Shown here in pieces: positions 9,728 to 47,454 of a stretch of 64,000 nt of DNA. Position 1 is the first letter of the stretch. Every line of letters begins with the position of its first letter. The translations under genes were made by a program, and so were the position numbers. This DNA is from an uncultured Candidatus Binatia bacterium (GTDB lineage: Bacteria > Desulfobacterota > Binatia > UBA9968 > JAJDTQ01): NCBI GenBank assembly GCA_965213675.1, contig OZ243916.1, positions 1,024,001 through 1,088,000 of the forward strand, in the 5' to 3' direction. The notes beneath the pieces are model-generated. The model was not told the DNA's origin. It ran no database searches and saw only the letters and a program-made list of their open reading frames with translations.

Positions 9728-9771
9728 GGGGCGGGAAGAGGCGAATTCTCGTCCCACACGTCCAGCGGGAG

Positions 9772-24716: not shown

Positions 24717-24741
24717 GTCCAGGGGGCTCCGCCCCCTGGAC
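24717..24741 (-). promoter_or_regulatory. Perfect 11-bp hairpin with GGA loop just downstream of a DGR-like variable repeat (candidate DGR homing hairpin)
   Basis: Coding strand: TGA-ATCTTTACCTCTTTACCTCATTTGTGGGG-GTCCAGGGGGC GGA GCCCCCTGGAC; no following U-tract. Confidence 0.7.
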
Positions 24742-24770
24742 CCCCACAAATGAGGTAAAGAGGTAAAGAT

Positions 24771-26954
24771 TCACGGGGTGAGCGTTCTGGCGATACGGAA
24801 CCCGACGTCGATGAACCGGTACGTGGAGGAGTACCTGAAGCGGTTGGCGGACCGGAGGTTCCTCGGTACGTCGAACCAGGAACCGCCGCGCAACACGCGC
24901 TGGCTGCAATCCCCCCCACTCACCCAAGCACTCCCGTCAGTCGGCGCTCCTTCGTAGCTGCCGTGCCAACAGTCCTCCACCCACTCCCGTACATTCCCAT
25001 GTACATCGTCCAATCCAAATCCATTCGCCAGATAACTCCCCACTGGTATCGTCCGCTTACGATAGTGCCCCTTCCAACCCAACCCGTACGTGTAGTTCCC
25101 GTTGTAGTTCGCCTGGTCCGTCCCAATCGTCGTTCCCGTATGAAACGGCCCTGCCGTCCCCGCTCGCGCCACATACTCCCACTCCGCCTCACTCAGTAGA
25201 CGATACCCCTTCCCTGTCCGCCTCGATAACCACGCCACGTACCCCTTCGCGTCCTCCCAACTCACGTTCACCACCGGTCGCCCCCCGCGTCCCCATCCCC
25301 TATCATCCGGCCGATACCCCCGACATCCTCCCCCTGCTACACACGCATCCCACTCCCCAAAAGTTACCTCGTACTTCCCCACCGCAAACGCCTTGCCTAT
25401 CCGCACCCGGTGACGCGGCCCCTCGCCCGAGTCCCTGCCTTCTTCTCCATCCGGCGATCCCATCGTGTACTCCCCAGACGGTACCACCACCATCTCCGGA
25501 CACTCCCCGCAGTCCCGAAACTCCCGCCCAGGTCGCTCCGCCTCCTCCCGGGCCTTCCGAGCCGCCGCCGCCTTCGCTCTTGCCCTTCTCTCCCGTTCCG
25601 CGGCCTCCTGAGCCAAACGCTCCCGCTCCGCCTCCTCCTGTTTTCGCCGCGCCGCTTCCGCTCGCGCTACATCCTCCCCGATCGCCTTCAATGCGCCAGC
25701 CTGTTCCCGCGTCAGGTATCCCGTCGCCGCCAACCCTTTCTCTTTCTGCCATGCCTCAATCGCACTCCGCGTCTTCTTCCCGAACAAGCCGTCCGCATAT
25801 CCGACCCCGAGTCGCAACTTCGCCAACCCCTGCTGGATCAGTACCCGCGCGGGCCGGTGCAAACCCAATGCATCTTCCATCGCCTTATGATCCGGCGCCT
25901 TCAATGCCGGTTCTCCTGGCAATGCGTCTTCCCGCGCCGGCGCCCTCGACATCGCAGCCCCTCCGGTCTCCGCTGTGCTGTCTCTCTTGTCGTCTCCCTC
26001 CTCCTTTCCTCCCAGGGCTCCTGCCTTTGCTGCGTCCATCCCCGGCCGCGCTGGAAAACCCTTTCCTTCCGCCGCCACCGCCGCCAGCACCACTTTCCCC
26101 GATCCCATCAGGTTCGCCTTCTGCACCCGACGGTGCACCCGACGCGCCGCCCGCGTCATCCAACGGTCCAGGTAACCCTTCGCCTCCTCCGCCGTCACTC
26201 TCCCGTCCTTGTCCGCGTCCCCTTTGCCGTACAGCGCGTTCAGCAGATGATGCGTGAACAGCCCGTGCCTTGCCTTGTCGTCCCACGACGCAATCTGCTC
26301 CCCGCTCGCCGCAGTCAACGCCGTCACCTTCCGCGATGCCGCTTGCGGCAGCGTCGCCTTCACAAACACCGGGCTCGCCGAACCTATCAGTCCGCCCTCG
26401 TTCGTCCCGCCCGAAAAACACGCGTCCAGAAACACCGCCACGCTCCGGGCCTCCGCCAACTTCCCCAGGTTCTCGTACAACAAATCGATGGGATACCCGT
26501 CGTCCTCCGCCGCCTTCGGGTCAACGTCCACCGGCAGCAAATATCCCCTCTTGTCGCGTTGCCCCGGCACCCCGTGCCCTGAGTAGAACACCACCACGTC
26601 CGAGCCCCCCTCCGGGTCCAGGTAGCTCCACAAAAGGCTCCCCGATGGGTCGCTCCGGGTTCCCAAGGCATCGTACAGTTGCCGCCGCCGCGCGTCCCGC
26701 AAATCGATCACGTTCTCCGCATCGAATCCCAGCACATCCAGCACGTACCTCTTGAACGCCTCCGCGTCCCGGTGCGCATACGTTACGTCCGGAACGTCCC
26801 GGTGCTCGTAGTCCCCGTTGCCGATGATCACCGCCACCCCACGCGCATTGCGCACCTCCGCCCACGCCAATGGACTCTCATGAGTCATCCACAGGCCCGC
26901 GCCCATGGCAACTACCCAGACAACAGCCACCCGCCGCCAGCAACGTCTTCTCAT
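24771..26954 (-). CDS. Secreted caspase-like (C14) + peptidoglycan-binding + coiled-coil + FGE/SUMF1 C-type-lectin-fold protein; candidate DGR target 1
   Basis: Signal peptide; YSGHG and LDACFSG dyad; IQQGLAKL..ADGLFGKKTRSAIEAWQ; FRDCGECPEMV..PVVNVSW..RLLSEAEWEY..RGGSW..GFRIAR. Confidence 0.9.
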   Translation of the reverse strand: MRRRCWRRVAVVWVVAMGAGLWMTHESPLAWAEVRNARGVAVIIGNGDYEHRDVPDVTYAHRDAEAFKRYVLDVLGFDAENVIDLRDARRRQLYDALGTRSDPSGSLLWSYLDPEGGSDVVVFYSGHGVPGQRDKRGYLLPVDVDPKAAEDDGYPIDLLYENLGKLAEARSVAVFLDACFSGGTNEGGLIGSASPVFVKATLPQAASRKVTALTAASGEQIASWDDKARHGLFTHHLLNALYGKGDADKDGRVTAEEAKGYLDRWMTRAARRVHRRVQKANLMGSGKVVLAAVAAEGKGFPARPGMDAAKAGALGGKEEGDDKRDSTAETGGAAMSRAPAREDALPGEPALKAPDHKAMEDALGLHRPARVLIQQGLAKLRLGVGYADGLFGKKTRSAIEAWQKEKGLAATGYLTREQAGALKAIGEDVARAEAARRKQEEAERERLAQEAAERERRARAKAAAARKAREEAERPGREFRDCGECPEMVVVPSGEYTMGSPDGEEGRDSGEGPRHRVRIGKAFAVGKYEVTFGEWDACVAGGGCRGYRPDDRGWGRGGRPVVNVSWEDAKGYVAWLSRRTGKGYRLLSEAEWEYVARAGTAGPFHTGTTIGTDQANYNGNYTYGLGWKGHYRKRTIPVGSYLANGFGLDDVHGNVREWVEDCWHGSYEGAPTDGSAWVSGGDCSQRVLRGGSWFDVPRNLRSANRFRYSSTYRFIDVGFRIARTLTP
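24804..24875 (-). repeat. DGR-like variable repeat VR1 (partner at 45337-45408)
   Basis: 15 substitutions against VR2 in 24 codons, all non-synonymous, 14 at codon positions 1-2, flanked by near-identical sequence. Confidence 0.8.
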
Positions 26955-26982: not shown

Positions 26983-27621
26983 CTACCGCGTCAGGCTCCG
27001 CGCCACGCGGAAACCAATCTCGTCCCCCCGAAACGAAAACCCCATGGTCAGATTGTCGTAGTTGCGGAATCCCGCGCGGAGTACCGACTTCCAGTCATTC
27101 CAGGAACCGCCGCGGATCACGTGCGCGGAACAAATCTCGTAGGAGGGCGGTTGCCACGAAGCATCGGGCGTCGCATCCGCCGCCGGACCGAAGCGGACGT
27201 TCCTGCCGGAGAAACGCGGCGCGGCGCTCAGCTTCTCCACCGTGATCTCGGCGCCCTCGATGACCATATGCACGTCGGTATCCGGGTTTAGGTTCATTCT
27301 ACCTAGGAGAATGGTGAGCCATTCCTCCACCTTGTGCGCCGGCGCGGAGGTGACGTAAGCGTATCTGCGCATCGCTGCATCGGAGCTCATCAGGGTGTGA
27401 CTCCGGTAACCCGGAAACTCCCCCGCCATGACGTCGATGATGTTCCGCGCCTCGCCCGGAGCAAAGTAGCGCAGCGTCACCGTGTAGGGCGTCACCAGCC
27501 CGTGCCTGCCATCTGGAAACGACTCACCGCGCTGCGCCGGCCCACCCGGCTGCACCGCGCAACCCGACAACACCCACGCAAGCACTACCGCGCCAACGAC
27601 TGTCTTCAAGAGATGTGACAC
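26983..27621 (-). CDS. Putative lipoprotein: unrecognised 'EFPGY' domain fused to an FGE C-terminal fragment
   Basis: GGAGG RBS plus GTG start, lipobox VLSGC, PYTVT..VMAGEFPGY..EEW domain, tail VIRGGSW..IGFRVAR. Confidence 0.75.
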   Translation of the reverse strand: MSHLLKTVVGAVVLAWVLSGCAVQPGGPAQRGESFPDGRHGLVTPYTVTLRYFAPGEARNIIDVMAGEFPGYRSHTLMSSDAAMRRYAYVTSAPAHKVEEWLTILLGRMNLNPDTDVHMVIEGAEITVEKLSAAPRFSGRNVRFGPAADATPDASWQPPSYEICSAHVIRGGSWNDWKSVLRAGFRNYDNLTMGFSFRGDEIGFRVARSLTR

Positions 27622-27674
27622 GTGGTGGCCTCCTTCCGTCGATGCGGTCCGCTTATCATACATTTCGGGGGGGC

Positions 27675-28631
27675 CTATTCGGAAATCGCCCTATCGTCGC
27701 CGGATCGTGTGCGGTTGGAGGTGGGGACGATCCTCTCCACGGTGATGTCCGTGCCCTCGATGGCGATGCGGACATCCCTGTCGGGATCGAAATTCATGTC
27801 CGCGAGCAGGATCGCCAGCCATTCCTCCATCCTGGCGGTCGTGGCCGTGGTGACATAGGCGTACCGCCGCACGCCCTGATCGGTACGCATCAGCTGGTGG
27901 CTACGGTAGCCCGGAAACTCCTCCGCCATGACCGCGATCATGGTCAACGCTTCTCGTCTGTCAAAGAGCCTGAAAGTGACGGTGTAGGGGGTCTCGATGC
28001 CACCACCCGGAACATCGCGGAAGCGGGCGAGCCTCGCGACCAGCCCGTTTCCGAGGGTCGTGGCGAGTTCCCTGGCGTGGCCCCCCACCACCCGGGCGAT
28101 GCAGCCCGGTTCGTCGAGGCAACCCGGGGGACCGAGGTACGACTGCTCCACTTCGACGCTGTCCTCGAACCGGTTGGAAGCCAGGTCGTAGATGTCGCTC
28201 TTCATGCGGATCCCGATGCGGGTGACGCTGTACAAGGATCTGACTTCCGCACGGACGCTGATCAACGCCAAGGCGCGCACCGCATGCGTGGCATCGGCGC
28301 TCTGGTTCATCAACTTGGCCATGTCGATGAGGTCCATCCGGGGGCGACGGTCGCGTATCTGCCAATCGAGGTCCACGGCCACCGCGGCCTCCTCGACGAC
28401 TCGGAAACCCGCGCGGCTCATTACGCCTTTAAGCTCGGCGATGACGCGCTGGAAGATCTCGTGACTGCGTGGGATGGTGGATGGGTCCTCGTCCTCGCCC
28501 GCCACGAGCACCGGCACGGCAGCGGCGCGAGCCGGCGCCTGCGCAAAGGATACGGCCGGCGTCATCAAAATGATGAGCGCCGCGAGGATCGCTCCCAGCA
28601 GAAAACCAGAGTATTGCGCATGGATCCGCAT
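27675..28631 (-). CDS. Secreted hypothetical protein with 'EFPGY' domain
   Basis: Signal peptide; full-length similarity to 32613-33674. Confidence 0.8.
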   Translation of the reverse strand: MRIHAQYSGFLLGAILAALIILMTPAVSFAQAPARAAAVPVLVAGEDEDPSTIPRSHEIFQRVIAELKGVMSRAGFRVVEEAAVAVDLDWQIRDRRPRMDLIDMAKLMNQSADATHAVRALALISVRAEVRSLYSVTRIGIRMKSDIYDLASNRFEDSVEVEQSYLGPPGCLDEPGCIARVVGGHARELATTLGNGLVARLARFRDVPGGGIETPYTVTFRLFDRREALTMIAVMAEEFPGYRSHQLMRTDQGVRRYAYVTTATTARMEEWLAILLADMNFDPDRDVRIAIEGTDITVERIVPTSNRTRSGDDRAISE

Positions 28632-28683: not shown

Positions 28684-29109
28684 CTACCCGCCGCCCGGGA
28701 CGGACGGTGCTCCGTACGTCTCCACTCCGCTTGGCGCATCGATGACATTCACGGGATGGTCCCGCTGGATGGACACCACCTCGGGCATACCGAGAAGGCG
28801 CATCACCGTGGCAGCGTCGGCTTCCAACGCCATCATCGGCAGGTTCTCGAAGACCCTGGCCGATTCCTGGGCCGGGGCGTCGAGCCGCGCGAGGATGGCC
28901 TCCGCCACGATCCCGATGGCATTCGCCGACGGCGCGGCTGCGCCTGGCGGACCCGCGGCGCCTTCCGGCAACGCGAACTCGACGACGATTTTCTGACGCT
29001 CCGAGGCCTTCTGCATTCCCGGGCCGGCCGGTGCGCATGCCAGCCCCGCCGCCATGAGCAGCCATGCCGCGGTCATCCTGCCTGCGTTCCTCATGGTCGT
29101 CATCGTCAT
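28684..29109 (-). CDS. Small lipoprotein, stand-alone subtilase propeptide/I9-inhibitor-like
   Basis: Lipobox-like AGLAC; RVFENLPMMALEAD..LLGMPEVVSIQRD resembles the prodomain of the upstream S8 gene (RRYEHLPVIAMKVD..VRIWRD). Confidence 0.6.
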   Translation of the reverse strand: MTMTTMRNAGRMTAAWLLMAAGLACAPAGPGMQKASERQKIVVEFALPEGAAGPPGAAAPSANAIGIVAEAILARLDAPAQESARVFENLPMMALEADAATVMRLLGMPEVVSIQRDHPVNVIDAPSGVETYGAPSVPGGG

Positions 29110-29113: not shown

Positions 29114-31192
29114 TCAGCCTCCAATGGGCTGCCAAGCGCCTTCCGTGCCTGACGGTGCGCCCGTGCTCGGCGGTGCGTCCTTGTTCGCCGGCTCGTCTTT
29201 GGCTGGCGGTTGGCCGCCTTTGTCGCCGCCACCCGCGGCCCCGGAATCGCGATCGCTTCCATGGACCCCCAACGCCCGCAGCGCACCCGCCACGTTCAAC
29301 GTGGGCTTGCGGATGCCATTGCGTTCATCCGTGATCTGCCGCCCGGCGTTCAGCAACGCACGGTAGAGATCGCGCACCGGGCTACGCGGCGACGCCTGTC
29401 GCAACACGGCAAATGCCCCGGCCACGTGCGGCGCGGCCATGGAAGTTCCGGGAAGCTCCTTGAACGGCGCTTCGTTCGTCGGCGACCGCGGCACAGACGA
29501 CAGAATATCCACACCCGGAGCCAGAATGTCGAGCGTTGGCGCGCTGTTGGAGAAGTCCGCCACTTTCGTCTGCTTGTCCACGGCGCCGACGCTCACGATG
29601 CCACGTACGCACGCGGGATGCGCAATGCCCCGGGTCTGACCTTCGTTGCCCGCCGCGGCCACGATCACCACCCCCTCCGCGGCCAGCAGGCGCACGGCGA
29701 GGTCGTAGATGCTGTCCTGGCATGGCGTGGCGGCGTGCCGCGGCGAACCGAGGCTCATGTTGATGGACGCGATGTGGACACGCCCGCTCCGGGCCACGCC
29801 GATGAGCCAGTCCAGGGCGCCCAGCACCGTGGAATTGCTCGCGCCGAGTTTCCCGTCCACGCGACTGAAGACATTGATGGCGATCAGGCCTGCTTCCGGG
29901 GCCACGCCCGCCATATCCACGCCCCGGCCCACGGCGATGCCAGCCACGTGGGTGCCGTGGTTAGCCACCGGCCGGGCTGCTCCGGGCCCCGCCATCCGGC
30001 GTTTCCCGTTGGGGCAGCGGCTTGAGAAACAGGCCTCGGCCACGGGACGTCCGGCGATGAAAGGATGGTTCACGTCCACACCCGTGTCCACCACGGCCAC
30101 GAACGTACCTTTGCCCGTATAACCGCCTCGGTGCGGCCCGTGCGCCCCCACCATGGGTCCGCTGTCGTCCAGGTAAGGTACCACCGGGAGGTCTCGCCAG
30201 ATGCGCACCCCGGCATCGTAGCCCTTGGCCGCGGCGAGTCCCTTGGCGTCCACCTTCATGGCAATGACCGGCAGGTGCTCGTAGCGGCGCACCTCGGTCA
30301 TCCGGCCCCGTCCGCCCACGGCCTTCACGAACGCGTCACCGGTCACCGCCACCAGCCCGGCCTTCCAACCGGTGCTCCCGCTCGTCTCATCGCCGGTGAC
30401 CGGGTGCCAACCCGTCACCAGCACGGCCGCCGTCTCCTGCCCGTCGGCCGCGGCCGACAACATTTCGTACTCGTCCACCGCGGCCCGCTCGCCGCTCGAT
30501 TCCGTCGATCCTGGGGATAACGGGCCGCCTGGGACTGGCGCCGTACCCGGCGCCGCCGGGTCGGCGGCGGTCATGGACACGACGCGCTCCGACCGATCTC
30601 GGGTCTCTGGAGCGCGCCGCACCGAAGCGTTGGGCGATGCGGGAGTGTCCGACTCCTCCATGGCGCTTGGAGCAGCTTGGGCGAAGACCACAATCTCCAC
30701 CCGCCGATGTCGCGACGAGTTTGCCGGCATACCCGCCAACAGCCGATCCTCACCGTAGCCCGCGTGGCGAAACCGCGCAGGTTCCAGTCCGAGCCCCTGC
30801 ACCAGGTACCGCACCACCGCACCCGCGCGCCTTTCGGAGAGTTGCTGGTTGTACGCCGCCCTCCCGGAGGCGTCGGTGTGGCCGTAGACACCCACGTCGT
30901 AGGATCTGAGCCGATCTCCGCCCAACGCCGCGCCCAGTTCGTCCAGTTGCTGCCGCGCCCTGGCGGTCAACTCGGCCGAGTTGACCGCGAACGGCACCCT
31001 CAGGTCCACAGAACGCTGTTCCTCCCCCGTCACCGGCACCAGCCGGTCCGTCAGTTCCTGGCGGTCGACGGGTTGCGACCGCGCCGCCGCCGGCACGAAC
31101 ACCGGCGCGATCACGACAAGGAGCGCGAGCGTGAGCCCCGCCAGCCGCGACCCCGGACGTGCCCACCCTGGCATACGCGAGAACCGCTTCAT
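29114..31192 (-). CDS. OmpA-domain + S8 subtilase fusion protein
   Basis: Signal peptide; GHTDASG..NQQLSERRA..GYGE..RRVEI (OmpA_C); VAVVDTG, HGTHVAG, AAGN, GTSMAAPHVAG. Confidence 0.92.
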   Translation of the reverse strand: MKRFSRMPGWARPGSRLAGLTLALLVVIAPVFVPAAARSQPVDRQELTDRLVPVTGEEQRSVDLRVPFAVNSAELTARARQQLDELGAALGGDRLRSYDVGVYGHTDASGRAAYNQQLSERRAGAVVRYLVQGLGLEPARFRHAGYGEDRLLAGMPANSSRHRRVEIVVFAQAAPSAMEESDTPASPNASVRRAPETRDRSERVVSMTAADPAAPGTAPVPGGPLSPGSTESSGERAAVDEYEMLSAAADGQETAAVLVTGWHPVTGDETSGSTGWKAGLVAVTGDAFVKAVGGRGRMTEVRRYEHLPVIAMKVDAKGLAAAKGYDAGVRIWRDLPVVPYLDDSGPMVGAHGPHRGGYTGKGTFVAVVDTGVDVNHPFIAGRPVAEACFSSRCPNGKRRMAGPGAARPVANHGTHVAGIAVGRGVDMAGVAPEAGLIAINVFSRVDGKLGASNSTVLGALDWLIGVARSGRVHIASINMSLGSPRHAATPCQDSIYDLAVRLLAAEGVVIVAAAGNEGQTRGIAHPACVRGIVSVGAVDKQTKVADFSNSAPTLDILAPGVDILSSVPRSPTNEAPFKELPGTSMAAPHVAGAFAVLRQASPRSPVRDLYRALLNAGRQITDERNGIRKPTLNVAGALRALGVHGSDRDSGAAGGGDKGGQPPAKDEPANKDAPPSTGAPSGTEGAWQPIGG

Positions 31193-31222
31193 CCCCGACT
31201 CCTTTCTCTTCGTTCGGCCCTA

Positions 31223-32023
31223 TCAGAAGAACCGCCGGGAACGGACCGTTGCACACGCCGACCCATCGTCCGAGCGGACCTGTCGCTGGCCGAGCGGCGC
31301 GGCGCTGCATCCCTCTTCACGGCCGGAATGCCACCGATCCTGGTGAAGGGGACGACCGTGGTTCCGGCCATCGCCAGCCCGTGCGTCGTCGCCCTGTCGG
31401 AAGCCGACTCCGTCATCAAGGAAACGGGCGCCGCGCGCCTCATCCAGCAGCGATGTGAAGGCCGCGTCCTTCTGATAGCGCACCCACCAGTCCATGACCG
31501 CGGCCACATACTTCAGAGTGCCGTCGTGCATCACCGGCCCCTCGTTGCAGCGCAACAGCGGCCCACGCCGGTAGTGCGACAACGTCAGGTCCCATCGTCC
31601 ATCGTAGCGCCGGTTGAGCCGCTCCAGCAAGGTCACACCCACGCCCGCGTTGGCGCGCGGGTGCTCAAGCCCGTAGGCGCGAAGGCCCAATTCCTCCCAT
31701 GCGACGGACGGCAGCACCTGCATGACGCCCACGGCCTTCGGTGCGCTGCTTTCGCGGAAGCGCTCCTTCCGCCCGACCCGCGCCACCGCCAGCGCCAGTT
31801 CCGGCGGCACCGAGCTCTTGAGGGCCGCCGCCGCCACCGCCCGCTGCCCCACGGTCCAACGCGTCTCACCCCACACCGATCCGTGTCCGAACAGTCCCAG
31901 AAACACCGCCGCCAGCGCGAGCCGGCCCACGCTTGGAAACCGGCGCACTTGTCGTTGCCGCTGGCTGCTCATGTTCTCCTTGTCACGTGTCACGCGCACT
32001 CCGCAATCCTTCTTGTTCCCCAT
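31223..32023 (-). CDS. Transglycosylase SLT-domain-like protein
   Basis: VPPELALAVAR.., GVMQVLP, LEHPRANAGVGVTLL, YDGRWDLTLSHY, TLKYV; start uncertain. Confidence 0.75.
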   Translation of the reverse strand: MGNKKDCGVRVTRDKENMSSQRQRQVRRFPSVGRLALAAVFLGLFGHGSVWGETRWTVGQRAVAAAALKSSVPPELALAVARVGRKERFRESSAPKAVGVMQVLPSVAWEELGLRAYGLEHPRANAGVGVTLLERLNRRYDGRWDLTLSHYRRGPLLRCNEGPVMHDGTLKYVAAVMDWWVRYQKDAAFTSLLDEARGARFLDDGVGFRQGDDARAGDGRNHGRPLHQDRWHSGREEGCSAAPLGQRQVRSDDGSACATVRSRRFF

Positions 32024-32612: not shown

Positions 32613-33674
32613 TTACTTGAAGCGGGCGCGCTCGTCGGGCGAACGCGGCCGGTCGCCCGTGGGGACGATTTTCTCCACCAGGATGTCGGCGCCGTTGATG
32701 GCGATGCGGATCTCCCTGTCAGTGTCGAAGTTCATGTCGTCGAGGAGAATCGTGATCCACTCTTCCATCTTGTGAGGCTTGGCCGAGGTGATGTAGGAGT
32801 ACTTGCGCGTGGCTTGGTCCGAGCGCAGCAGGGTGTGTGTGTTGTATCCTGGGAACTCGTCGGCCATGACGCCGATGACGGTGAGCGCTTCCCGCCGCTC
32901 GAAGTACTTGAGCGTCACGGTGTACGGAGTCTGCATTCCATGGCCGCTGCCGGAAGCGCGCCGGCGGCTGCCGGTGACCGCGTCACCCGAGCCGCTGCCA
33001 GTCCCGGCGGAGACTCGACGCGGGGCTCCGCCGCCAGCAGCCGCATTGCGCAGGTGAGCCAACTTGGTGGCCATGGTGACGCCCAGATCCGCGGCCAACT
33101 CGCGCGCCCGGTCGCCCACGACCTCGTCGATGCAAAGCTCGCGTTGGGACAGGCAGTTGGCGGGAGCGGGGTAACCTCTTTCCGCGATCTCGTATTCCTT
33201 GGGAGCATCGTTGCCAACGACGTCGACGATCTCACCGTTGAGCCGTACACGGACTTCCGTGCGGGCGCCGTCGCCCTTGGGCTGCGCCGCTGCGCGGACA
33301 CGAATCAGGAACAGGGCTCGTACCTGGTGCGAAGCGGTATCACTTCTGTTCATGCTCTTGGCAAGATCGATCAGGTCCATCTTGGGCCGGCGATCACTGA
33401 CCTTCCAACCCAAGTCCACGGCCACCGCTTCCTCGTCCACCACGCGGAACCCCTCGCGGGCCATGTTTTCGCGCAGAACGCTGATGACGCGCCTGAAGAT
33501 CTCGCTGCCGCGCCGGACCGTGAACTTGTCATCGTCCCAAGCCGCCACCAACACCGGCACGTCGCTGTACTGATGGGTCTGCGCCACGGTGGGTCCACAG
33601 GCCGCAAGAACCAGGGCCAGGGCGGGCAGCACCGTACCCAAGGCAATTCGTGTCTTCCTCATGAAACTCATCAT
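32613..33674 (-). CDS. Lipoprotein with 'EFPGY' domain (paralogue of 27675-28631)
   Basis: AAGGAGG RBS, lipobox VLAAC; shared VPVLVA..EIF.RVI..GFRVV.E.AVAVDL.W...DRRP.MDLID and PYTVT..EFPGY. Confidence 0.8.
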   Translation of the reverse strand: MMSFMRKTRIALGTVLPALALVLAACGPTVAQTHQYSDVPVLVAAWDDDKFTVRRGSEIFRRVISVLRENMAREGFRVVDEEAVAVDLGWKVSDRRPKMDLIDLAKSMNRSDTASHQVRALFLIRVRAAAQPKGDGARTEVRVRLNGEIVDVVGNDAPKEYEIAERGYPAPANCLSQRELCIDEVVGDRARELAADLGVTMATKLAHLRNAAAGGGAPRRVSAGTGSGSGDAVTGSRRRASGSGHGMQTPYTVTLKYFERREALTVIGVMADEFPGYNTHTLLRSDQATRKYSYITSAKPHKMEEWITILLDDMNFDTDREIRIAINGADILVEKIVPTGDRPRSPDERARFK

Positions 33675-34057
33675 GTCTGCCTCCTTCTGCCGTCTTTGGA
33701 TTCGGTCATGGAACACCCATGCCACCGTGGCCATGGAAGGGCCAGACTCTGTTTCGCTCAATTGCGCGCTCCGACACGTTCCAGGATGGCGCCCAATACT
33801 TCGCTCTGTTGCCTGACCGACTCCTTTTGTTGTCGACTAGATACGCTGTCTCCTGAAGAGAATCAACATCCATCAAAGGGGCCCGTGGACCTTCGAAGAG
33901 TCCGCCGCAAGCGGGAATCCAGGCGGGAAGAAGCGGATGGGTGGGATCGCGGTTTGAAAAACATGAGCATCCGTGGACAATGCTGTCTAACTCTTCCATG
34001 GAAACATACAGGAGGGAGACGCGCATCTTCCAGCCACTTTCGTCGAATTTCCATTGA

Positions 34058-35623
34058 GTGACGGACATGTCGAGTCGGATTCTGCACGGAGCGGACGAGG
34101 TCCTTCGCGGGACATTCTGGGACTTGGCCCAGATCGGCGACCCGGAGGGACCCAAGTACCCCGAGCCGGTGCTTCGGCGGTTGGCGGCGAAGATCCTGGA
34201 GGGGCGTGCCCACGAGCCTCTGGTGTTCCGCCTTTGCCATCTGGCGCGGGCGGCCGCGTTCGCGGCGGCGGAGGGGCCGTCCGGGTGGCTGGAGTTCTTC
34301 TGCGCGCCGGGAGCAGGGCGGTCCGGCTGGGCCGCGGGTTGGCTGCGGGCACGCCTGCCGGAGGAGTTGGAAGAGCGCGGGGAAGGTGCGCCGGTCACCG
34401 CCACGGCCCAACAACTGGCACTCCGATACCGGGAAAGGGCGGAGCCGGTCACGATCTCGTTTGGCGCTGCGCCGCTTCTCGCGGCCTTCATGGAATTCCT
34501 TCTGAACGCGCTCCCTTACCCGACGCTGAGCGACGCCATGGCCGTACTGTCGCGCCCGGAACTCGGTTGGCGGGAGCTTCAGGACACGGCCAATGCCCTG
34601 TCTCGCGCCGTCTACGCGTGGCTGCGCGAGCATACCCGGCCGGTGCAGGACAGCCGTCACTTCGACGCCATGACGCGGTTTATGTCCGGTCGCAGCGGAC
34701 GCGGCGACTTCAGTGCCGAGGATATCGACGACGACGCGGTGCTGGACTTCTGGCGCGCGGCTTCGCTGGAAGCCGGCTCCGAGTTCCGCACCTTCCGCAA
34801 GACCTTTCGGACGTTCCTCCGTCTGGCTGAGGCCCTGCGCGAGGAGGCATTGCGCGACGGGCTGGAAAACCCGCAGACTCTGACCGCCGTCGCGGGACGG
34901 GCGGGTCGTGAACCCGTGGACCCGTCTTCGCCGGGGCTCGACCTGATGCACGCGTCGGGGCCGGCCACGGCTCTCTGGGAGGGTTCGGAAGAGGACAACG
35001 ACGCCTCCCCGCTGGAGGCGCTCGCGGGGTCGGAGATCAAGCTGCTCCTGGCGAGCGAGATCAAACGGCTGGCGCTCGTGGACGCCCACCCGGTATTCCT
35101 CCCGCGGCTCGCCCGCTCGCTCCTGCGCGACCACTGCTTCGGGCAGGCCCAGGGACGCATTTCCCAGGCGCTCCGCGCCAACCCGAACGCCGCCCGTGCA
35201 CTTGCCGCCGAACCGCCTGAGACCGGCTATGACCGGGAGGCGGCCGCGCTGCTGGCGCTGTCCATCCATCTCGACGATCTCCTGGTGGCCGCCGCGGCGG
35301 CCTTGGCGGGCGCAGGGGACCGCGGCGGCGCCGTGCGGCGGCTCGACTTCGAGACCCTGGGCCGGGGACGCCGTGCGCTCAAGGGATTGCGGCGCAGGGG
35401 TTTCGACCGGGTCCGGTCCGGCGAGCCCGAGGCCCTGGCCGACCTGCGGCGGGCGGCTCCCGCCATGGCGGCGCTGCGTGAACGGCTGGCGCCGCTGTGT
35501 GCGCAGCTTCGGGAGGGCGCCCCTTGGGCGCCGTGCCAGCAGGAGGACGAAACCGTGTTCGCGCGACAGTTTGCCCGCATCTACGGCGACGCGGGCGCGG
35601 GAGAAGGAGGGACGGCCGCATGA
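34058..35623 (+). CDS. Hypothetical protein (521 aa, largely helical)
   Basis: Long ORF with host-like codon use; ATGA coupling to next gene; start may be ATG 34067. Confidence 0.75.
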   Translation: MTDMSSRILHGADEVLRGTFWDLAQIGDPEGPKYPEPVLRRLAAKILEGRAHEPLVFRLCHLARAAAFAAAEGPSGWLEFFCAPGAGRSGWAAGWLRARLPEELEERGEGAPVTATAQQLALRYRERAEPVTISFGAAPLLAAFMEFLLNALPYPTLSDAMAVLSRPELGWRELQDTANALSRAVYAWLREHTRPVQDSRHFDAMTRFMSGRSGRGDFSAEDIDDDAVLDFWRAASLEAGSEFRTFRKTFRTFLRLAEALREEALRDGLENPQTLTAVAGRAGREPVDPSSPGLDLMHASGPATALWEGSEEDNDASPLEALAGSEIKLLLASEIKRLALVDAHPVFLPRLARSLLRDHCFGQAQGRISQALRANPNAARALAAEPPETGYDREAAALLALSIHLDDLLVAAAAALAGAGDRGGAVRRLDFETLGRGRRALKGLRRRGFDRVRSGEPEALADLRRAAPAMAALRERLAPLCAQLREGAPWAPCQQEDETVFARQFARIYGDAGAGEGGTAA

Positions 35624-36177
35624 GCCGGAGTTGGAACACCCTGTCGGATCCGGAACGCGACCGCGTGCGCCGCGCTTTCGTCCTGAGCGTGGGCGCGGAC
35701 GCGCTGGCGGCATCGGAAGAGCCGCCGGACGTGGTCCGTCCGCCTCGTTTCGATCAACTCTACGCCGCGGCCCGTGACCCGCTGGCGGCGCTGACCCCGG
35801 CGCTGGGCGCGGCGCTGGCAACGCACGAGCGCGCCCGCGCCACGTTCGAAGCGCTGCTTCGGGAAGCCGCGGCCTGCTGGTTCCCGGTTGCGGCCGCGGC
35901 GGCCGCCCCGGGCGGCCTCGATTCCCGCGAAGAGGGAGGTTTTCGCATCTGGCTCCGTCCCTCCAGTGCCGGCCACGGCCAAGTCTACGTGCTCCTGCGC
36001 GCGGCCGAGGGGCGCGACGTCCAGCCTCGGGCCATCGTGGCGGCGTCCCCCGCGGCGGCGCCCGTGTGTACCCCCCTTCCGGAGGACATCGACGGCGTCT
36101 ATCAACTCATCCAGCGCGAGGATTCGCCCTTGGTGCGCGCCATCCGCGATCCCGCCTCAAAGCTCGCTCTCCGCTGA
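35620..36177 (+). CDS. Hypothetical protein (185 aa)
   Basis: AAGGAGG RBS and ATG overlapping the upstream stop. Confidence 0.75.
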   Translation: MSRSWNTLSDPERDRVRRAFVLSVGADALAASEEPPDVVRPPRFDQLYAAARDPLAALTPALGAALATHERARATFEALLREAAACWFPVAAAAAAPGGLDSREEGGFRIWLRPSSAGHGQVYVLLRAAEGRDVQPRAIVAASPAAAPVCTPLPEDIDGVYQLIQREDSPLVRAIRDPASKLALR

Positions 36178-36189
36178 CGGGTCCACGTC

Positions 36190-37572
36190 GTGCGCGCCCG
36201 GGTCTACATCGCCACCACCGAGGGACCGGTCCTGGTGCAGCGGCTGGCTCCCGAGGAGGGGTTGGCCGAGGCCGAGTTGTCCGCGGTGTGTCTGGACGGC
36301 ACCCCCACCCGGTTGCCCATCACCGGCGCCTACACTTGGTTCGTACGCGATCACGTGCGCTCTTTTTCCGGCGGCGCGGCCTACCGGCTGGACCTGGACG
36401 CGCGCATCGACGGGGGAAGCAGTTGGATGCTCGGGGCGTGGGTCGCGCACCTGCTGCTGTCCGAGGGACGTCTGGCCGTGGGAGACGACAGCGCGGATGC
36501 CGCCGTGTTCGCCACCGGCGAGGTGGCGGTGGCCACCGACGCCGAGCGCCGCACCGAGGTGCGGTCCGTGGGCCACGTCACGGACAAGGTGGCGCGTCTG
36601 GCCCAGCGCGCCGCGGAGGAGGCCGCCGCCGGACGCCGGGTTGTGCTGCTGGTGCCACGGGAAAACGCGGTCGAGGCCGGAGCGGCCGTGGAACGGTTGC
36701 CGGCAACGGTCCGGGAGCGGCTGACGCTGCGCGTGGCGTCCGATACCGCGGAGGTGCGGGAGGTGTTGACCCCGCCGGACGGCGCTGCGCCGGCCACTCC
36801 TGCTGCGGCCGCGTCCGCCACGGCTTCGTCCGCCACGGAGCCGCCGACTGCGACATCGCCTGCTCGCGTCGATGACCGGCGCCGGGGAGGCAAACTGGCC
36901 GTGGCGCTGTTGGCTTGCGTCCTGCTGGGAACGGGGGCCGCCGGCTTTTGGAGTTGGCGCAACGTGGAGCGGGAGTGGGAAGACCTTCGCCTCGCCGGCC
37001 GTTACGTCGAACTGGCGCGTTCGCTGGACGGGTTTCCGCTTCGAGCCGCAGCCGACCACGTGCGCACCCGGTGGCTGGACCCGGGGGCGGCCGCGGGTTT
37101 CACGTTGCAGGTGGCGGCGCGCCGCCCCGCCGACGGCGGGTCATGCTCCGGCATGCGCTTCCGCGGGAGCGTCCTGGCGACCACGCCGGTCAACGCCTCC
37201 GGCCCGCTCTACCGCCTTACGCAACCGCGCTCGTTGTGCGGGTTGGAGATCCAGACGTCGCCGCCCGAGACTGGCACTGCCGGGTACGCCTGGATATCCT
37301 TGCGCATGGTACCCGAGGGTCCGGTCCCCGTGGCGCTGTTGCCTGCGCACCGCGTGGTCTCGAGCACGCTCGCGGACTCCCCGGTCGCGCTGTCGCTGGA
37401 CCTGCCGCTCTATGTCCAGGATCATTGGGCCTGGGCAGTCACCTCGGTGTGGGCGCCCGCGCCGTCGGAGGATGTGGCGCCGCTTCTGGAAACCGGAGAC
37501 GACGCGGCCCTTGACGCGCTGACGAAGCTGGGGCTCAGGGTGACCCGGGCCCGGGTCGAGTGGGCCCGATAA
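36190..37572 (+). CDS. Membrane-anchored Lon-protease(S16)-like domain protein
   Basis: IDGGSSW / FATGEV / VGHVTDK / LLVPREN parallel Lon motifs DGPSAG / MTGEI / IGGLKEK / LIPxEN; Ala/Pro/Thr linker, one TM helix, C-terminal domain. Confidence 0.65.
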   Translation: MRARVYIATTEGPVLVQRLAPEEGLAEAELSAVCLDGTPTRLPITGAYTWFVRDHVRSFSGGAAYRLDLDARIDGGSSWMLGAWVAHLLLSEGRLAVGDDSADAAVFATGEVAVATDAERRTEVRSVGHVTDKVARLAQRAAEEAAAGRRVVLLVPRENAVEAGAAVERLPATVRERLTLRVASDTAEVREVLTPPDGAAPATPAAAASATASSATEPPTATSPARVDDRRRGGKLAVALLACVLLGTGAAGFWSWRNVEREWEDLRLAGRYVELARSLDGFPLRAAADHVRTRWLDPGAAAGFTLQVAARRPADGGSCSGMRFRGSVLATTPVNASGPLYRLTQPRSLCGLEIQTSPPETGTAGYAWISLRMVPEGPVPVALLPAHRVVSSTLADSPVALSLDLPLYVQDHWAWAVTSVWAPAPSEDVAPLLETGDDAALDALTKLGLRVTRARVEWAR

Positions 37573-37654: not shown

Positions 37655-39511
37655 TTATCTGGACCGTGACGCCCGCCGGCTGCCGGTGGAAACGAGATCC
37701 CGCGCCACCCGGAAACCGGTGTCGAAGTTGCGGCTTTCCGCCGCATCGCTTCCGCGCGCCGCCGACCGAAGCACACCCGGATGGCTGTACCAGGAGCCGC
37801 CGCGCAACATGCGCCGGTCGCAGTCGCCCCTTCGGAGCCAGGCCGCGCCGTCGTCCGGCCCACCCGCATAGTCCTTGTGAAGACAATCCTCCACCCACTC
37901 CCAAGCGTTCCCGAGCATGTCCGACAACAGAAACCCGTTCTCCCCGTGGGTTCCCACCTCCGCGGTGCGGACTCCTTGGTCGCGACACTCGGACGTGGCG
38001 ACAGCGCGATAATTCGCCCGGAATCCCGCGTCCGCACCGTTGGCGTTCTGGCACTGCCCCGTCACCTCGTCACCCCAGTACCGCGCCGAGGTCGTGCCGG
38101 CCCGGGCCGCGTACTCCCACTCCGCCTCCGACAACAACCGGTAACCCCGGCCCGTCTTCTCCGACAGCCACGCCGCGTATGCCTTGGCGTCATCCCAACT
38201 GACGCACACCACGGGATGGCGTTGCCCTTGATCGAAGCCCGGCTCCCGCCACGAACGCGCACCATCCTGCCGCCATTGGTCCAGACTGCCGTCTCCGAAC
38301 CAGCACCCGCCCGCCGTCTCGCGTCCGCTCTCCTCCACGAAGGCGGCATACTCTTCCCGGGTCACCTCGTACTTTCCCACGGCCAACGGCGACTCAATCC
38401 GAACCTGGCGTTGCGGCCCTTCATCCTTACCTCGCGTCCTCTCATCCGGCGGCGAACCCATCGTGTACGCACCGGGGCCGATCACAATCATTTCCGGGCA
38501 CGCATCGCAGTCGCGGAAGACCTGGCCGGGCCCGAGCGGCGCGCCCGGACCGAGCCCGGCCTCAACACCCGCCATTGACTTGGCGGAAAGAAATTCCCGG
38601 ACCGCGTTGACCGGCCTGCCATGGGAACGGGAATGGACCATGACCCGCAACTCGACCTTGTCCGTCAGGAAGACCAGCTCGCCCTTCAGATCGTAGACGG
38701 GATCCCGGAGATCGCCGCCCCCCACCGACGCCCCTCGGGGAGGCGCCGCGAGCAATTCCACGACGCGGTTCCTTAGCCCCCCTGCCACATGTTCCGCGAG
38801 CGGAGACTTCCCGCGCACACGCTGATCGTCGATGGACACGTCGCCGAGCCCTCCCCGCAGGCTTCGGGCGACATCGCCCGCCACGGCGCTCAGGGCCTGT
38901 TCCAACGACAACGGCGCGTACAGCCATTTCTCTTGAAAGAACACCGACGCACTGCCCAGCCGGCTCAGGTCCGTCGCAATGGCCGCGCAATAGAGCGTGA
39001 GTCCACTCTCCACGGCGGTGCTCGTGCACGAAAGAATGATGGGCGTCTGATGGCTGCGGAGCGCCGCCTGATAGGCCTCGAACCAGTCGGCCGCGCCCGT
39101 GTTCTCCAACGCGCGCGCGACGGCTGCGTGTTTCCTGGGGTCCGTGACAGTGAACAGTCCGATCTCCCCTGTTTCCCTCAGCGCATTGATCATCCAGCCA
39201 TAAACCAACCGGCGCTGGCGACCTCCCAACGTCACGGCGCGCGGGTCCAGGGGTTGGAACGTGATCCGCTTGTCGTCTTGCGGAGCCTTCCGTATCGCGT
39301 CCGGGAACGACCTGAGCAGGTTGCCAGCCCAATCCTTGGCCGCCTCCCTGGCGTGAGCCGAACCGTCCCGTGGCCCGGCCCCTTGGCCCCAGACCGTAGA
39401 CACACCTGCCGCGGCAAGCGTCAGCGATACGAACCAAGCCCAAACCCCCGTCGCCAGACGATGCCGCCAGCGATGCTGCGTCTTCGTTGTCATCGTCTTC
39501 CTCCGGCTCAA
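37655..39511 (-). CDS. Secreted FGE/SUMF1-domain protein with unknown N-terminal domains
   Basis: Signal peptide; FRDCDACPEMI, HPVVCVSW, RLLSEAEWEYAARAG, DMLGNAWEW, RGGSW, GFRVAR. Confidence 0.88.
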   Translation of the reverse strand: MSRRKTMTTKTQHRWRHRLATGVWAWFVSLTLAAAGVSTVWGQGAGPRDGSAHAREAAKDWAGNLLRSFPDAIRKAPQDDKRITFQPLDPRAVTLGGRQRRLVYGWMINALRETGEIGLFTVTDPRKHAAVARALENTGAADWFEAYQAALRSHQTPIILSCTSTAVESGLTLYCAAIATDLSRLGSASVFFQEKWLYAPLSLEQALSAVAGDVARSLRGGLGDVSIDDQRVRGKSPLAEHVAGGLRNRVVELLAAPPRGASVGGGDLRDPVYDLKGELVFLTDKVELRVMVHSRSHGRPVNAVREFLSAKSMAGVEAGLGPGAPLGPGQVFRDCDACPEMIVIGPGAYTMGSPPDERTRGKDEGPQRQVRIESPLAVGKYEVTREEYAAFVEESGRETAGGCWFGDGSLDQWRQDGARSWREPGFDQGQRHPVVCVSWDDAKAYAAWLSEKTGRGYRLLSEAEWEYAARAGTTSARYWGDEVTGQCQNANGADAGFRANYRAVATSECRDQGVRTAEVGTHGENGFLLSDMLGNAWEWVEDCLHKDYAGGPDDGAAWLRRGDCDRRMLRGGSWYSHPGVLRSAARGSDAAESRNFDTGFRVARDLVSTGSRRASRSR

Positions 39512-45303: not shown

Positions 45304-47454
45304 TCACGGGGCGAGCGTTCTGGCGATACGGAACCCGAAGTCGTCGTACCGGTTCGAGGTGGGGTTCCTGAAGCGGTTGGCGGACCGGAGGAACCTCGGA
45401 ATGTCGCCCCAGGAACCGCCGCGCAACACGCGCTGGCTGCAATCCCCACCACTCACCCAAGCACTCCCGTCAGTCGGCGCTCCTTCGTAGCTGCCGTGCC
45501 AACAGTCCTCCACCCACTCATATACATTCCCATGTACATCGTGCAATCCAAATCCGTTCGCCAGAAAACTCCCCACTGGTATCGTCCGCTTACGATAGCG
45601 CCCCTTCGAACCCAACCCGTACGTGTAGTTCCCGTCGTAGTTCGCCTGGTCCGTCCCAATCGTCGATCCCATATGAAACGGCCCTGCCGTCCCCGCTCGC
45701 GCCACATACTCCCACTCCGCCTCACTCAGTAGACGATACCCCTTCCCTGTCCGCCCCGATAACCACTCCACGTACCCCTTCGCATCCTCCCAACTCACCC
45801 TTATCACTGGACGCCGCCCTCGTCCCCATCCCCCATCATCCGGCCGATACCCCCGACACCCTCCCCCTGCTACACACGCATCCCACTCCCCAAAAGTTAC
45901 CTCATACTTCCCCACCGCAAACGCCTCCCCTATCCGCACCCGGTGACGCGGCCCCTCCTCCCTGAACCTGCCTTTTTCTCCATCCGGCGATCCCATCGTG
46001 TACTCCCCAGACGGTACCACCACCATCTCCGGACACTCCCCGCAGTCCCGAAACTCCCGCCCAGGTCGCTCCGCCTCCTGCGCTCGACGCGCCGCCTCTT
46101 CACGCGCCTTCGCCTCCTGCGCCAACCGTTCCCGCCGCTGCCGCTCCAACTCTGCCCGCTGCCGTGCCGCCGCTTCCGCCATCTCCCTTGCCCTGCGCGC
46201 CTGCTCCTGCTTCTCTCGCGCGGTCTCTTCGCCCAATACCTTCAACGCCGCACCCTGCTCGGCCGTCAATCGCCCCGTCTCCCGCAACCCCTTCGAGGCC
46301 TGCCACCGCCGAATCGCCTCCTCCGTCCGCTTGCCGAAAATCCCATCCGGTTTCCCCAGATCGAAATTCAACGACGACAACCCCTCCTGGATCAGGCGCT
46401 TCGTCGCGAGATCCCAATCCGGCTCTGCCGCCGGCGCCGGGACCCTCTGAAACTCCGGTCGGGGAGGTTGAGCGCCGGGACCCGACAACCGCGGTCGCTC
46501 CGGAAAAACGCCGTCCGCACGGGCCAACGCCAGCACTTGGTCGCCACTTCCTTGCAGCGTGGCGTTCTGGATACGCTTTTCGTTCAGCCACAAGGAGTTG
46601 GTCATGTACAATTCGAGATAGGAGATCGCCTCCTTCGCCGTCACCCTGCGGTCGCTGTTAGCGTCTGCCTTCCCGTACAGTGCGTCCAGCAGGTGGTGCG
46701 TGAACCGCCCATGCTGCGCTTCCCTGTCCCAAGTGGCGATCTGCGTGCTCCTCGCCGCGGTCAGTACTACCAACCCTGCTCCCGTTTCGGGCAGCCGCGC
46801 CTCGGACGAGACCGCCGAACCCGTCACGATCACGCCCCCATCGCTGTTGCCCGAGAAGCAGGTGTCCAGGAACACCCGCACCGACCTGACGCCCCGCAGC
46901 TTTCCCAGATTCCGGTAAAGCACCTCGAGGCTGTACCCTTCCACCCGGGCCGCGGAGACCGGCACGTCCACGGGCAAGAGATAGGGCTTCCCCTTGTGCG
47001 CGCCAGGCACGCCATACCCTTGGTCCCCGGCAGGGACGCCGTGCCCCGAATAGTACACCAACACATCCTTGTCCGAGTCCTGGTCCATGCCTCGAAGGAG
47101 CGCCAGTCGCGCCTTAAGGTCGTTCATCTCCGTGTCCGGCCCGCCCAGCACCTCCAGCATCTGCCGCCGGGTGGCGTTGGGTATGTGAATCACGTCCTCC
47201 CTGGCGTAACCGAGGACGTCCACGACGTAGCGCTTGAACGCTTCCGCGTCCCGGAGCGCGTAGTCCACGGGCGGAATGTTTCTGGACTGGTAATCCTTGT
47301 TGCCGATGATCACGGCGATGCCAGGCCGCTCGGCTTGCGCTTCCGCGCTCCAGACCGCCACGCACACCACCGCCACGACGGCCGGCAACAACCCCTCGCA
47401 AACCGACCTTGTCCAGCTTGTCCACGGTGTCGCCACGAGTTCTTTCGCCATCAC
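45304..47454 (-). CDS. Secreted caspase-like + PG-binding + coiled-coil + FGE protein; candidate DGR target 2
   Basis: YSGHG and LDTCFSG; IQEGLSSL..PDGIFGKRTEEAIRRWQ; last ~780 bp colinear and near-identical to 24764-25546. Confidence 0.9.
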   Translation of the reverse strand: MMAKELVATPWTSWTRSVCEGLLPAVVAVVCVAVWSAEAQAERPGIAVIIGNKDYQSRNIPPVDYALRDAEAFKRYVVDVLGYAREDVIHIPNATRRQMLEVLGGPDTEMNDLKARLALLRGMDQDSDKDVLVYYSGHGVPAGDQGYGVPGAHKGKPYLLPVDVPVSAARVEGYSLEVLYRNLGKLRGVRSVRVFLDTCFSGNSDGGVIVTGSAVSSEARLPETGAGLVVLTAARSTQIATWDREAQHGRFTHHLLDALYGKADANSDRRVTAKEAISYLELYMTNSLWLNEKRIQNATLQGSGDQVLALARADGVFPERPRLSGPGAQPPRPEFQRVPAPAAEPDWDLATKRLIQEGLSSLNFDLGKPDGIFGKRTEEAIRRWQASKGLRETGRLTAEQGAALKVLGEETAREKQEQARRAREMAEAAARQRAELERQRRERLAQEAKAREEAARRAQEAERPGREFRDCGECPEMVVVPSGEYTMGSPDGEKGRFREEGPRHRVRIGEAFAVGKYEVTFGEWDACVAGGGCRGYRPDDGGWGRGRRPVIRVSWEDAKGYVEWLSGRTGKGYRLLSEAEWEYVARAGTAGPFHMGSTIGTDQANYDGNYTYGLGSKGRYRKRTIPVGSFLANGFGLHDVHGNVYEWVEDCWHGSYEGAPTDGSAWVSGGDCSQRVLRGGSWGDIPRFLRSANRFRNPTSNRYDDFGFRIARTLAP
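45337..45408 (-). repeat. DGR-like variable repeat VR2
   Basis: See VR1; encodes GDIPRFLRSANRFRNPTSNRYDDF versus FDVPRNLRSANRFRYSSTYRFIDV. Confidence 0.8.

Follow-up and report, generated by a model that had tools for sequence, protein, structure and literature searches.

A probably exported caspase-like protease with a putative wall anchor and a retroelement-type variable lectin-fold head in a Candidatus Binatia genome

How does an exported caspase-like protease come to carry a variable binding domain, and what might such a protein do in the cell envelope? This question is raised by gene A, an open reading frame (ORF) of the 64,000-nucleotide (nt) stretch of DNA analysed here (the window: positions 1,024,001 to 1,088,000 of contig OZ243916.1, from an uncultured Candidatus Binatia bacterium). 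An earlier note on this DNA had read the gene as an antigen-receptor-like fusion of a protease, a wall anchor and a diversified lectin domain. We found that gene A probably encodes an exported orthocaspase joined to a wall anchor and to a lectin-fold head of the type rewritten by diversity-generating retroelements (DGRs), and that the predicted protease is probably active. The features of gene A are given in Table 1 together with those of a related gene of the window (paralogue B) and of the neighbouring genes.

Table 1. Coordinates in the window of gene A, its domains, paralogue B and the surrounding genes (aa, amino acids; PG, peptidoglycan; VR, variable region; TR, template repeat; labels beginning with L are loci compared with the window)
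Feature	Position	Strand	Basis and remarks
Gene A, exported C14 / PG_binding_1 / FGE-fold protein, 727 aa (export predicted)	24771..26954	-	ORF and three Pfam domains
Gene A signal-peptide-like N-terminus, residues 1-32	26859..26954	-	read from the translation, no predictor
Peptidase_C14 (caspase-fold) domain, Pfam residues 38-245	26220..26843	-	His127 26574-26576, Cys179 26418-26420
EF-hand-like loop DADKDGRVTAEE within the C14 domain, residues 246-257	26184..26219	-	conserved columns and profile matches
Low-complexity linker, residues 301-366 (66 residues)	25857..26054	-	sequence, between C14 and PG-binding domains
PG_binding_1 domain, residues 367-422	25689..25856	-	Pfam E 2.5e-10, 40.8 bits (cut-off 23)
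ER/K-rich helix, residues 427-473, likely rigid spacer	25536..25676	-	composition; helicity predicted from it
FGE-sulfatase / C-type-lectin-fold head, residues 484-723	24786..25505	-	Pfam PF03781 E 5.5e-50
DGR-type VR of gene A, residues 694-717 (24 codons)	24804..24875	-	A/B differences, TR adenines of relatives
Conserved 3' element: TCTTTACCTCTTTAC motif, 10 nt, 11-bp GC-rich hairpin with GGA loop (24717-24741)	24717..24770	-	fold
Paralogue B, 716 aa, same three-domain plan	45304..47454	-	VR 45337-45408, no 3' hairpin element
226-aa lipoprotein-like protein (50-aa FGE tail) and 318-aa exported protein, shared C-terminal domain	26983..28631	-	FGE tail E 6.8e-4, weak
Subtilase (S8) with OmpA-like domain, and SLT lytic transglycosylase	29114..32023	-	Pfam; kept beside caspase-lectin genes in L010, L012, L022
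382-aa lipoprotein-like paralogue of the 318-aa protein	32613..33761	-	repeat D1; homologues in 4 loci
Divergent operon g521 / g226b / g460	34058..37572	+	ORFs; conserved in L010, L011, L012, L013, L022
618-aa exported protein, unknown N-terminal domain and PvdO-like FGE head	37655..39511	-	Pfam E 3.5e-59; 64% homologue in L011

As had been claimed, gene A contains C14, PG-binding and FGE domains in this order, and three Pfam domains in the same order were found in paralogue B. The Peptidase_C14 family (PF00656) matched gene A with E = 8.6e-14 (52.2 bits; cut-off 21.4) and paralogue B with 50.2 bits, and both reading frames are open. We obtained 1112 homologues of gene A (E ≤ 0.001), and 108 of the 120 listed carried all three domains. 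The N-terminus displays a basic start, a hydrophobic core and A-W-A ahead of Glu33, which is Sec-signal-like by reading alone, and the protein is probably periplasmic. Binding to peptidoglycan, or tethering to the wall, is putative, the evidence for it being the Pfam match to PG_binding_1. The linker ahead of this domain aligned poorly with that of paralogue B (13% identity, with gaps). On the other side of the domain, the 47 residues at positions 427–473 comprise 12 E, 11 R, 3 K and 16 A, with a single L and a single V. Because this segment lacks a heptad hydrophobic core, we read it as a single ER/K helix; the coiled-coil stalk of the earlier note is probably not a coiled coil.

To characterize the protease domain, we aligned the stop-free tblastn matches of more than 200 residues to residues 31–300 in the compared loci, which gave 22 rows including A and B. 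The histidine of GHG (His127) and the cysteine of DxCxSG (Cys179) were invariant in all 22 domains, and Asp177 was nearly invariant. The motifs reported from the first reading were located at residues 125–128 (SGHG) and 177–182 (DACFSG) of A and at residues 197–202 (DTCFSG) of B. An AlphaFold2 model of residues 31–300 (pLDDT 85, pTM 0.87) matched the MALT1 paracaspase best in Foldseek (E = 6.7e-11, TM 0.60/0.68), and further matches were caspase-11, caspase-7, yeast Yca1 and the bacterial protein GSU0716. The profile of the alignment also matched solved metacaspases (metacaspase-1 7qp0, E = 9e-6; 4f6o, E = 1.4e-4), and aligned GHG and DxCxSG with their YSGHG and DSCHSG motifs. Gene A is a member of peptidase family C14, with a score above the family threshold, the caspase-hemoglobinase fold and the His–Cys dyad. 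In other words, Pfam, AlphaFold2, Foldseek and the metacaspase profile agree on a C14 domain with an intact dyad, and the worry that the domain might lack support from hidden Markov models or structure is answered in its favor. Asp177, two residues ahead of Cys179, would form an acidic S1 pocket, as in work on metacaspases and MALT1, and presumably confer a preference for Arg or Lys.

Two further properties of the domain concern its possible regulation and its family. The EF-hand-like loop corresponds to the conserved columns D216, D220, T224 and E227 of the alignment (termed A3), and the profile over this loop gave weak matches to solved EF-hand proteins (1jfj, E = 5.4e-4 for the whole sequence, with weak single stretches); paralogue B contains DANSDRRVTAKE at this position. 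A prediction of two copies of the domain as a dimer, with the same alignment, scored 0.00 against a mark of 0.42 and is uninformative either way. The best NCBIfam model was 'caspase, EACC1-associated type' (NF047832, E = 6.5e-22), and gene A scored 78 bits (80.1 in the genome search), which does not reach its cut-off of 140 bits. No EACC1- or Pepco-like small gene was recognised among the ORFs read, the small ORFs not being scanned against family libraries. A third C14 gene, with a frame of 396 aa and 134 bits to Peptidase_C14, was observed twice with identical scores in the assembly from which the window derives (G000, C7:28694-29374 and C1:1724823-1725503). This repetition suggests that small contigs of the assembly partly duplicate the main contig, and one small contig does duplicate part of a large one. 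Elsewhere, positions 2405–11584 of L066, from a metagenome-assembled genome (MAG) labelled Thalassospiraceae, contain five consecutive C14 domains in a 9-kb stretch, 33–56% identical to that of A.

The note had described the N-terminal two-thirds of A and B as divergent and the FGE module as nearly identical, and had offered module swapping or gene conversion as the cause. We accordingly compared the two genes part by part. Protein identity was 46% in the C14 domain, 44% in the middle parts and 90% in the FGE modules without the VR. In a codon alignment, DNA identity was approximately 50% as far as residue 467; from residue 468 onward, and until 12 nt beyond the stop codon, it was 94%. Comparison with other genomes displayed the same division: the C14 domain of A was 73–76% identical to orthologues in four MAGs (L009, L010, L012 and L022) compared with 46% to B, that of B had its best match (61%) in L011, and the heads without the VR shared 90% identity, whereas no foreign head exceeded 77% with either of them. 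Since the C14 domains are nearer to foreign orthologues and the heads nearer to each other, the N-termini are those of old paralogues, and homogenisation of the head took place within this genome. Of the two causes offered, the sharp identity boundary and the comparison with foreign orthologues support the second, and gene conversion between the A and B heads, over approximately 760 bp, is well supported. In a related MAG, the tract shared by a DGR-adjacent and a remote target covers the last ~250 nt only. Paralogue B itself lies isolated amid metabolic genes. We also observed a short palindromic element (CGTCATTCCCGCGAAAGC...GGGAATCCAGGGG) at positions 9676–9743, 43289–43356, 43370–43421 and 47772–47823; copies bracket an Fe-ADH gene together with paralogue B and may represent a REP or MITE-like repeat.

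Differences between the two heads are concentrated near their C-termini. Among residues 694–717, 11 of 24 codons differ, all nonsynonymously, and 14 of the 15 base changes fall at codon positions 1–2, compared with 29 of 224 codons (20 nonsynonymous, 9 synonymous) for residues 470–693. We aligned this region with four TR/VR pairs from relatives, and 29 of the 135 columns were A in at least three of the four foreign TRs. Of the 16 A/B differences, 12 lay in these columns (Fisher P = 1.2e-6, the templates being foreign and not cognate), and the sole third-position change of the VR coincided with an AAA/AAT template codon. The 3' element of gene A points in the same direction. Near-identical copies follow the VRs of L009, L011 (two), L028, L018, L034, L025 and L013, and seven of these eight VR ends were matched to a TR, whereas the element is absent after gene B and after L083. 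No T run stands behind the gene A hairpin, which was not called a terminator. The tail differences might also have arisen from ordinary point mutations favored by positive selection, with no retroelement involved, and selection for change is plausible, as the rest of the head likewise has 20 nonsynonymous against 9 synonymous codon differences. However, we consider this origin very improbable, because the differences coincide with the template adenines of relatives, the single third-position change falls on the AAA/AAT codon and the 3' element is common to proven TR/VR pairs. In phage BPP-1, efficient retrohoming is reported to depend on a hairpin immediately 3' of the VR (PMC3240598). By analogy, we infer that gene A would still be a competent DGR target and that gene B would not.

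We further analysed the identity of the head. Its closest solved relative was PvdO (5hha, E = 6.6e-64 over residues 469–725), and it also matched the DGR protein TvpA of Treponema denticola (2y3c, E = 1.4e-13). TvpA resembles gene A, with modest similarity, in its FGE/C-type-lectin fold, its C-terminal VR and its export; to our knowledge it has no protease or peptidoglycan-binding domain. PvdO is periplasmic, as gene A is predicted to be. It is a single-domain protein of a siderophore pathway (pyoverdine maturation), and we know of no report of PvdO as a DGR target. The head could accordingly be a PvdO-like enzyme or partner acting on a periplasmic metabolite or peptide, with the caspase as a maturation protease and the tail a product of ordinary divergence. 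Both its best solved relative and its best NCBIfam match, pyoverdine_PvdO, favor this possibility. However, the latter score (236 bits) is far under the equivalog cut-off of 500, and residues 689–727 contain no cysteine, where FGE enzymes presumably keep their catalytic Cys pair, after the RGGS motif. By its score and by the lack of this Cys pair, the head falls outside the FGE and PvdO equivalogs. Moreover, homologous heads in relatives are rewritten by DGRs, and we saw no genes of pyoverdine type in the part of the neighbourhood that was examined. A PvdO-like role is for these reasons very unlikely.

The cassettes of relatives indicate how such heads are served. We compared each of 87 sequences (the window and 86 loci, 8 of which derive from its own genome) with itself in search of TR/VR repeats. 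Adenine-specific pairs were found at the ends of FGE genes in L009, L018, L028, L034, L061 and L083, and in L033 on the other strand. Reverse transcriptase (RT) matches of at least 300 aa were present in 6 loci, and fragments in 3 more. For example, L018 contains, in order, bAvd, an RT (RVT_1, E = 3.2e-15), a TR and a target with C14, PEGA, CarboxypepD_reg, PG_binding_1 and FGE domains. The TR of L009 differs from the neighbouring VR by 15 mismatches, 14 of them at A, and from two VRs on a different contig of that MAG by 16 and 18, of which 15 and 16, respectively, are at A. VRs in L049 and L013 are likewise compatible with the TR of L018, and one in L025 with the TR of L028 (18 of 22 mismatches at A). 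As judged from these sequences, the Avd-RT-TR cassettes of relatives serve caspase-lectin genes that are adjacent as well as remote. A 50-nt repeat pair in L053 was too short to count as TR/VR, and a repeat in the window itself (39981–40148) was rejected as a tandem coding repeat.

We searched 24 same-genus genomes for the RT of this clade and found it in 5 (near full length in four, fragments in one); among 16 genomes from other families of the order, 1 contained it. An A-type C14 domain was present in 1 of the 24, where the order is target, Avd, RT, TR. We also observed, in a same-genus genome, a DGR cassette and a caspase-lectin target flanked by fragments of a subtilase, an OmpA-like gene and g460 (L173, G011:C1:1142000-1154000), as if the cluster described below had been rearranged or had decayed there.

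These results lead us to an explanation that we regard as probable on the whole: an exported caspase with a peptidoglycan anchor carries a DGR-type variable head, homogenised by conversion; the genes are remote or orphaned targets; and capture by the head places the protease. An orthocaspase/metacaspase-type domain would hang by a flexible linker from the peptidoglycan-binding domain, and the ER/K helix on the other side of this anchor would bear a binding head of C-type-lectin fold, related to PvdO and TvpA. The heads of A and B would have been homogenised by gene conversion and would then have diverged almost only at template-adenine positions. The variable head would capture a changing ligand of the envelope and so set the tethered protease beside its substrate, which could be the captured molecule itself or some member of the conserved cluster nearby. 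Cleavage is predicted after Arg or Lys, and might be gated by calcium. The proposal that ligand binding triggers or aims proteolysis, as in an antigen receptor, is reasonable but hypothetical. Similar ideas are in print for cytoplasmic DGR targets (PMC10907252, PMC7159879).

Several observations weigh against this explanation. Localisation, peptidoglycan binding, catalysis and ligand binding are all predictions, and the head is much nearer in sequence to PvdO than to TvpA. Six TR-adenine columns hold the same non-A base in both VRs; these bases were either inherited or do not correspond to adenine in the true template. In the assembly from which the window derives (4.53 Mb, 21 contigs, 97.7% complete, 8% contamination), RVT_1 had no match, and the RT and Avd of a relative found nothing by tblastn at E ≤ 10. 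The VR scaffold occurs there only in the two VRs, with no third copy. Searches for a cognate TR with IUPAC patterns (N at the variable sites) gave 0 matches in the genome_contigs and 0 in the metagenome_contigs collections. The templates of four same-genus genomes, among them the one with the A-type C14 domain, had at least 7 non-adenine mismatches to the VRs and none was cognate; the nearest foreign TR had 5. Finally, an exact copy of the VR of A was present in each of four public runs, although contigs would hide rare variants.

Since searches of the assembly yielded neither RT nor Avd nor TR, A and B would be remote or orphaned targets, and current diversification is unproven. The word 'diversified' in the earlier note accordingly holds for the history of the VR, whose differences lie at template adenines of relatives, and does not extend to an ongoing process. 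For this particular genome, the missing mutagenic cassette limits the value of the finding. However, absence from an assembly of this completeness and contig number does not prove absence from the organism. The four runs belong to one study with two samples, possibly including the source of the window, and were available as assembled contigs. A copy with 16 differences was attributable to gene B in three of them (X2, X3 and X4). Because paralogue B and the heads of other organisms also match the stretch, variation at single sites could not be assigned. In addition, a contig of low depth (3.4–3.6x; runs X2 and X4), which matches 24722–24988, contains two VR-like pieces 1,494 nt apart. This spacing resembles the VR–TR distance of 1,524–1,599 nt in L009, L034 and L061, as an order of target, Avd, RT and TR would give. 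A 119-nt piece of the same contig had 0 differences from the VR of A in one run but 17 in the other.

Whether A and B have been orphaned or are still served from a distance is thus a matter of probabilities. We give close to an even chance to the loss of the cassette from this lineage, which would have frozen both VRs at fixed specificities. Besides the empty searches of the assembly, this is favored by the failure to find the clade RT in 19 of the 24 same-genus genomes, with fragments only in one further genome, by the lack of the 3' hairpin element at gene B, and by the distance of only 157 nt from gene A downstream to an EamA transporter gene, where a same-genus genome has Avd-RT-TR; the exact VR A copies in all four runs add weak evidence. 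However, gene A retains its complete hairpin element, neither reading frame is interrupted, and in a related MAG the cassette lies on a contig of 5.6 kb apart from its remote targets. A cassette placed in this manner could escape assembly or binning. It is accordingly a serious, if somewhat less probable, alternative that the cassette resides in the organism or on a mobile element of the population, unassembled or unbinned, and goes on diversifying gene A. Relatives commonly have remote targets, a repeated head of 760 bp would break short-read assemblies, and the low-depth contig, seen in two runs, could hold such a VR and TR; the intact hairpin element also fits. However, the depth of that contig is several-fold below that of the gene A contigs, so that it may belong to another organism, and no cognate TR appeared in any collection searched.

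Capture by a variable head that places the protease remains our preferred explanation, and we compared it with known systems. Fusions of caspases with FGE domains, and orthocaspases among DGR targets, are already published. A 2012 survey of prokaryotic metacaspases and orthocaspases, covering 671 sequences, counted 33 fusions with FGE-sulfatase and 11 sequences with a peptidoglycan-binding domain (Asplund-Samuelsson et al., PMC3501461); as in gene A, C14 lies N-terminal to FGE-sulfatase. Unlike here, the accessible text of that survey reads FGE as a sulfatase-modifying enzyme, draws no link to DGRs and does not describe the exported three-domain form or the cluster. Cyanobacterial DGR variable proteins with orthocaspase N-termini were reported in 2020 (Vallota-Eastman et al., PMC7517822). 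As in gene A, the orthocaspase precedes a C-terminal variable domain of C-type-lectin type, and remote variable proteins and paralogues occur; however, a cytosolic location is predicted for most of them, whereas gene A is predicted to be exported and to bind peptidoglycan, in a Binatia genome without a DGR cassette in its assembly.

DGR-diversified C-type-lectin heads with caspase- or trypsin-like peptidases have been proposed as antigen sensors of conflict systems, with a periplasmic location predicted for some targets (Dore et al. 2024, PMC10907252; Kaur et al. 2020, PMC7159879). Such systems centre on STAND or MoxR-vWA NTPases, whereas gene A would join protease and head in one exported, wall-anchored chain. 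A preprint on Pepco and EACC1 (bioRxiv 2025, PMC12642450) describes fusions of effector-linked proteases with FGE and peptidoglycan-binding sensors, as well as an association of EACC1-linked cysteine proteases with DGRs; the C14 domain of gene A is most like the EACC1-associated model, yet stays at 78 of the 140 bits. We found no paper under 'diversity-generating retroelement' with 'Peptidase_C14', none relevant for sponge symbionts, and no description of the exported three-domain form or its gene cluster in the literature as far as it was accessible, although the supplementary target lists of these papers may include the exact architecture.

DGR lectin heads on death-type proteases have thus been proposed as antigen sensors without a known ligand or substrate for any of them. 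With sensor, anchor and protease in what would be one soluble periplasmic protein, gene A should be experimentally simpler than the multi-component cytoplasmic systems, and its conserved neighbours (subtilase, lytic transglycosylase, lipoproteins and the Lon-like transmembrane protein) are candidate partners. Gene A with, and gene B without, the 3' hairpin form a natural pair in which to compare what turns a remote gene into a DGR target. The homogenised head of 760 bp might in turn illustrate how, through gene conversion, one template continues to fit several receptors.

A run of minus-strand genes ends with gene A; it also comprises those for the 382-aa protein, SLT, the S8 subtilase/OmpA-like protein, a small ORF (28684..29103) and the 318-aa and 226-aa proteins. 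Homologues of the cluster accompany caspase-lectin genes in L010, L011, L012 and L022, those of the 226-aa and 318-aa proteins among them, and some occur in L013. As the MAGs concerned are labelled Immundisolibacterales, Binatia, Thermodesulfobacteriota and Gammaproteobacteria, this predicted envelope gene cluster around gene A is conserved across MAGs labelled as several phyla. We observed that the 226-aa ORF (26983–27663, minus strand) has an LSGC lipobox, a domain common to the 318- and 382-aa proteins and the last ~50 residues of an FGE domain. This tail is too short for a lectin fold and may be a remnant or a decoy of a VR. For the 382-aa protein, a protein atlas gave leads only (DUF2066, DUF6175 and CsgG/LpoB-like; scores 0.88–0.97).

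The product of g460 (36190–37572, plus strand) is predicted to span the membrane with one helix, which joins a Lon-protease-like domain in the cytoplasm to a domain in the periplasm. The cytoplasmic domain contains invariant DGG-S-W and ATGEV motifs and Lys133, and the top Foldseek matches of its AlphaFold2 model (pLDDT 77.5) were all Lon proteolytic domains (best E = 9.2e-7). Sequence searches of Pfam, NCBIfam and the PDB gave nothing usable for g521, g226b, g460 or the ORF 28684..29103. PADLOC recognised no known defence system and returned only a weak caspase match (E = 2.6e-7) and a subtilase match, and no STAND or MoxR-vWA NTPases were seen among the cluster ORFs scanned.

From these genes we formed a more speculative hypothesis, which we hold to be doubtful. 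The cluster might act as a programmable surveillance of the periplasm, in which PG-anchored caspases with rewritable heads capture foreign proteins that arrive in the envelope, for example phage components or incoming toxins of competitors, and the calcium-gated protease cuts either the captured protein or the periplasmic domain of g460, which would carry an alarm to the cytoplasm. If so, the cluster would correspond, on the side of the envelope, to the DGR 'antigen sensor' systems of the cytoplasm, and conversion would distribute a common head scaffold over the paralogues, all of which one template could then serve.

Three minus-strand ORFs (33863..35821, 36157..37059 and 48049..49503) were rejected as genes and are probably antisense shadows of plus-strand genes. 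Their tblastn matches in relatives stem from genes on the opposite strand of this GC-rich DNA, and the protein atlas was uninformative for the spurious 652-aa ORF. A 203-aa protein (39697–40308, minus strand) contains tandem repeats of 11 and 18 residues (ESLRQETKA...; 33 and 54 nt in the DNA), a hydrophobic C-terminal tail and a CCDC90-like Pfam match. The closest relative of the MutL encoded in the window, at 74% identity, comes from a MAG labelled Candidatus Binatia.

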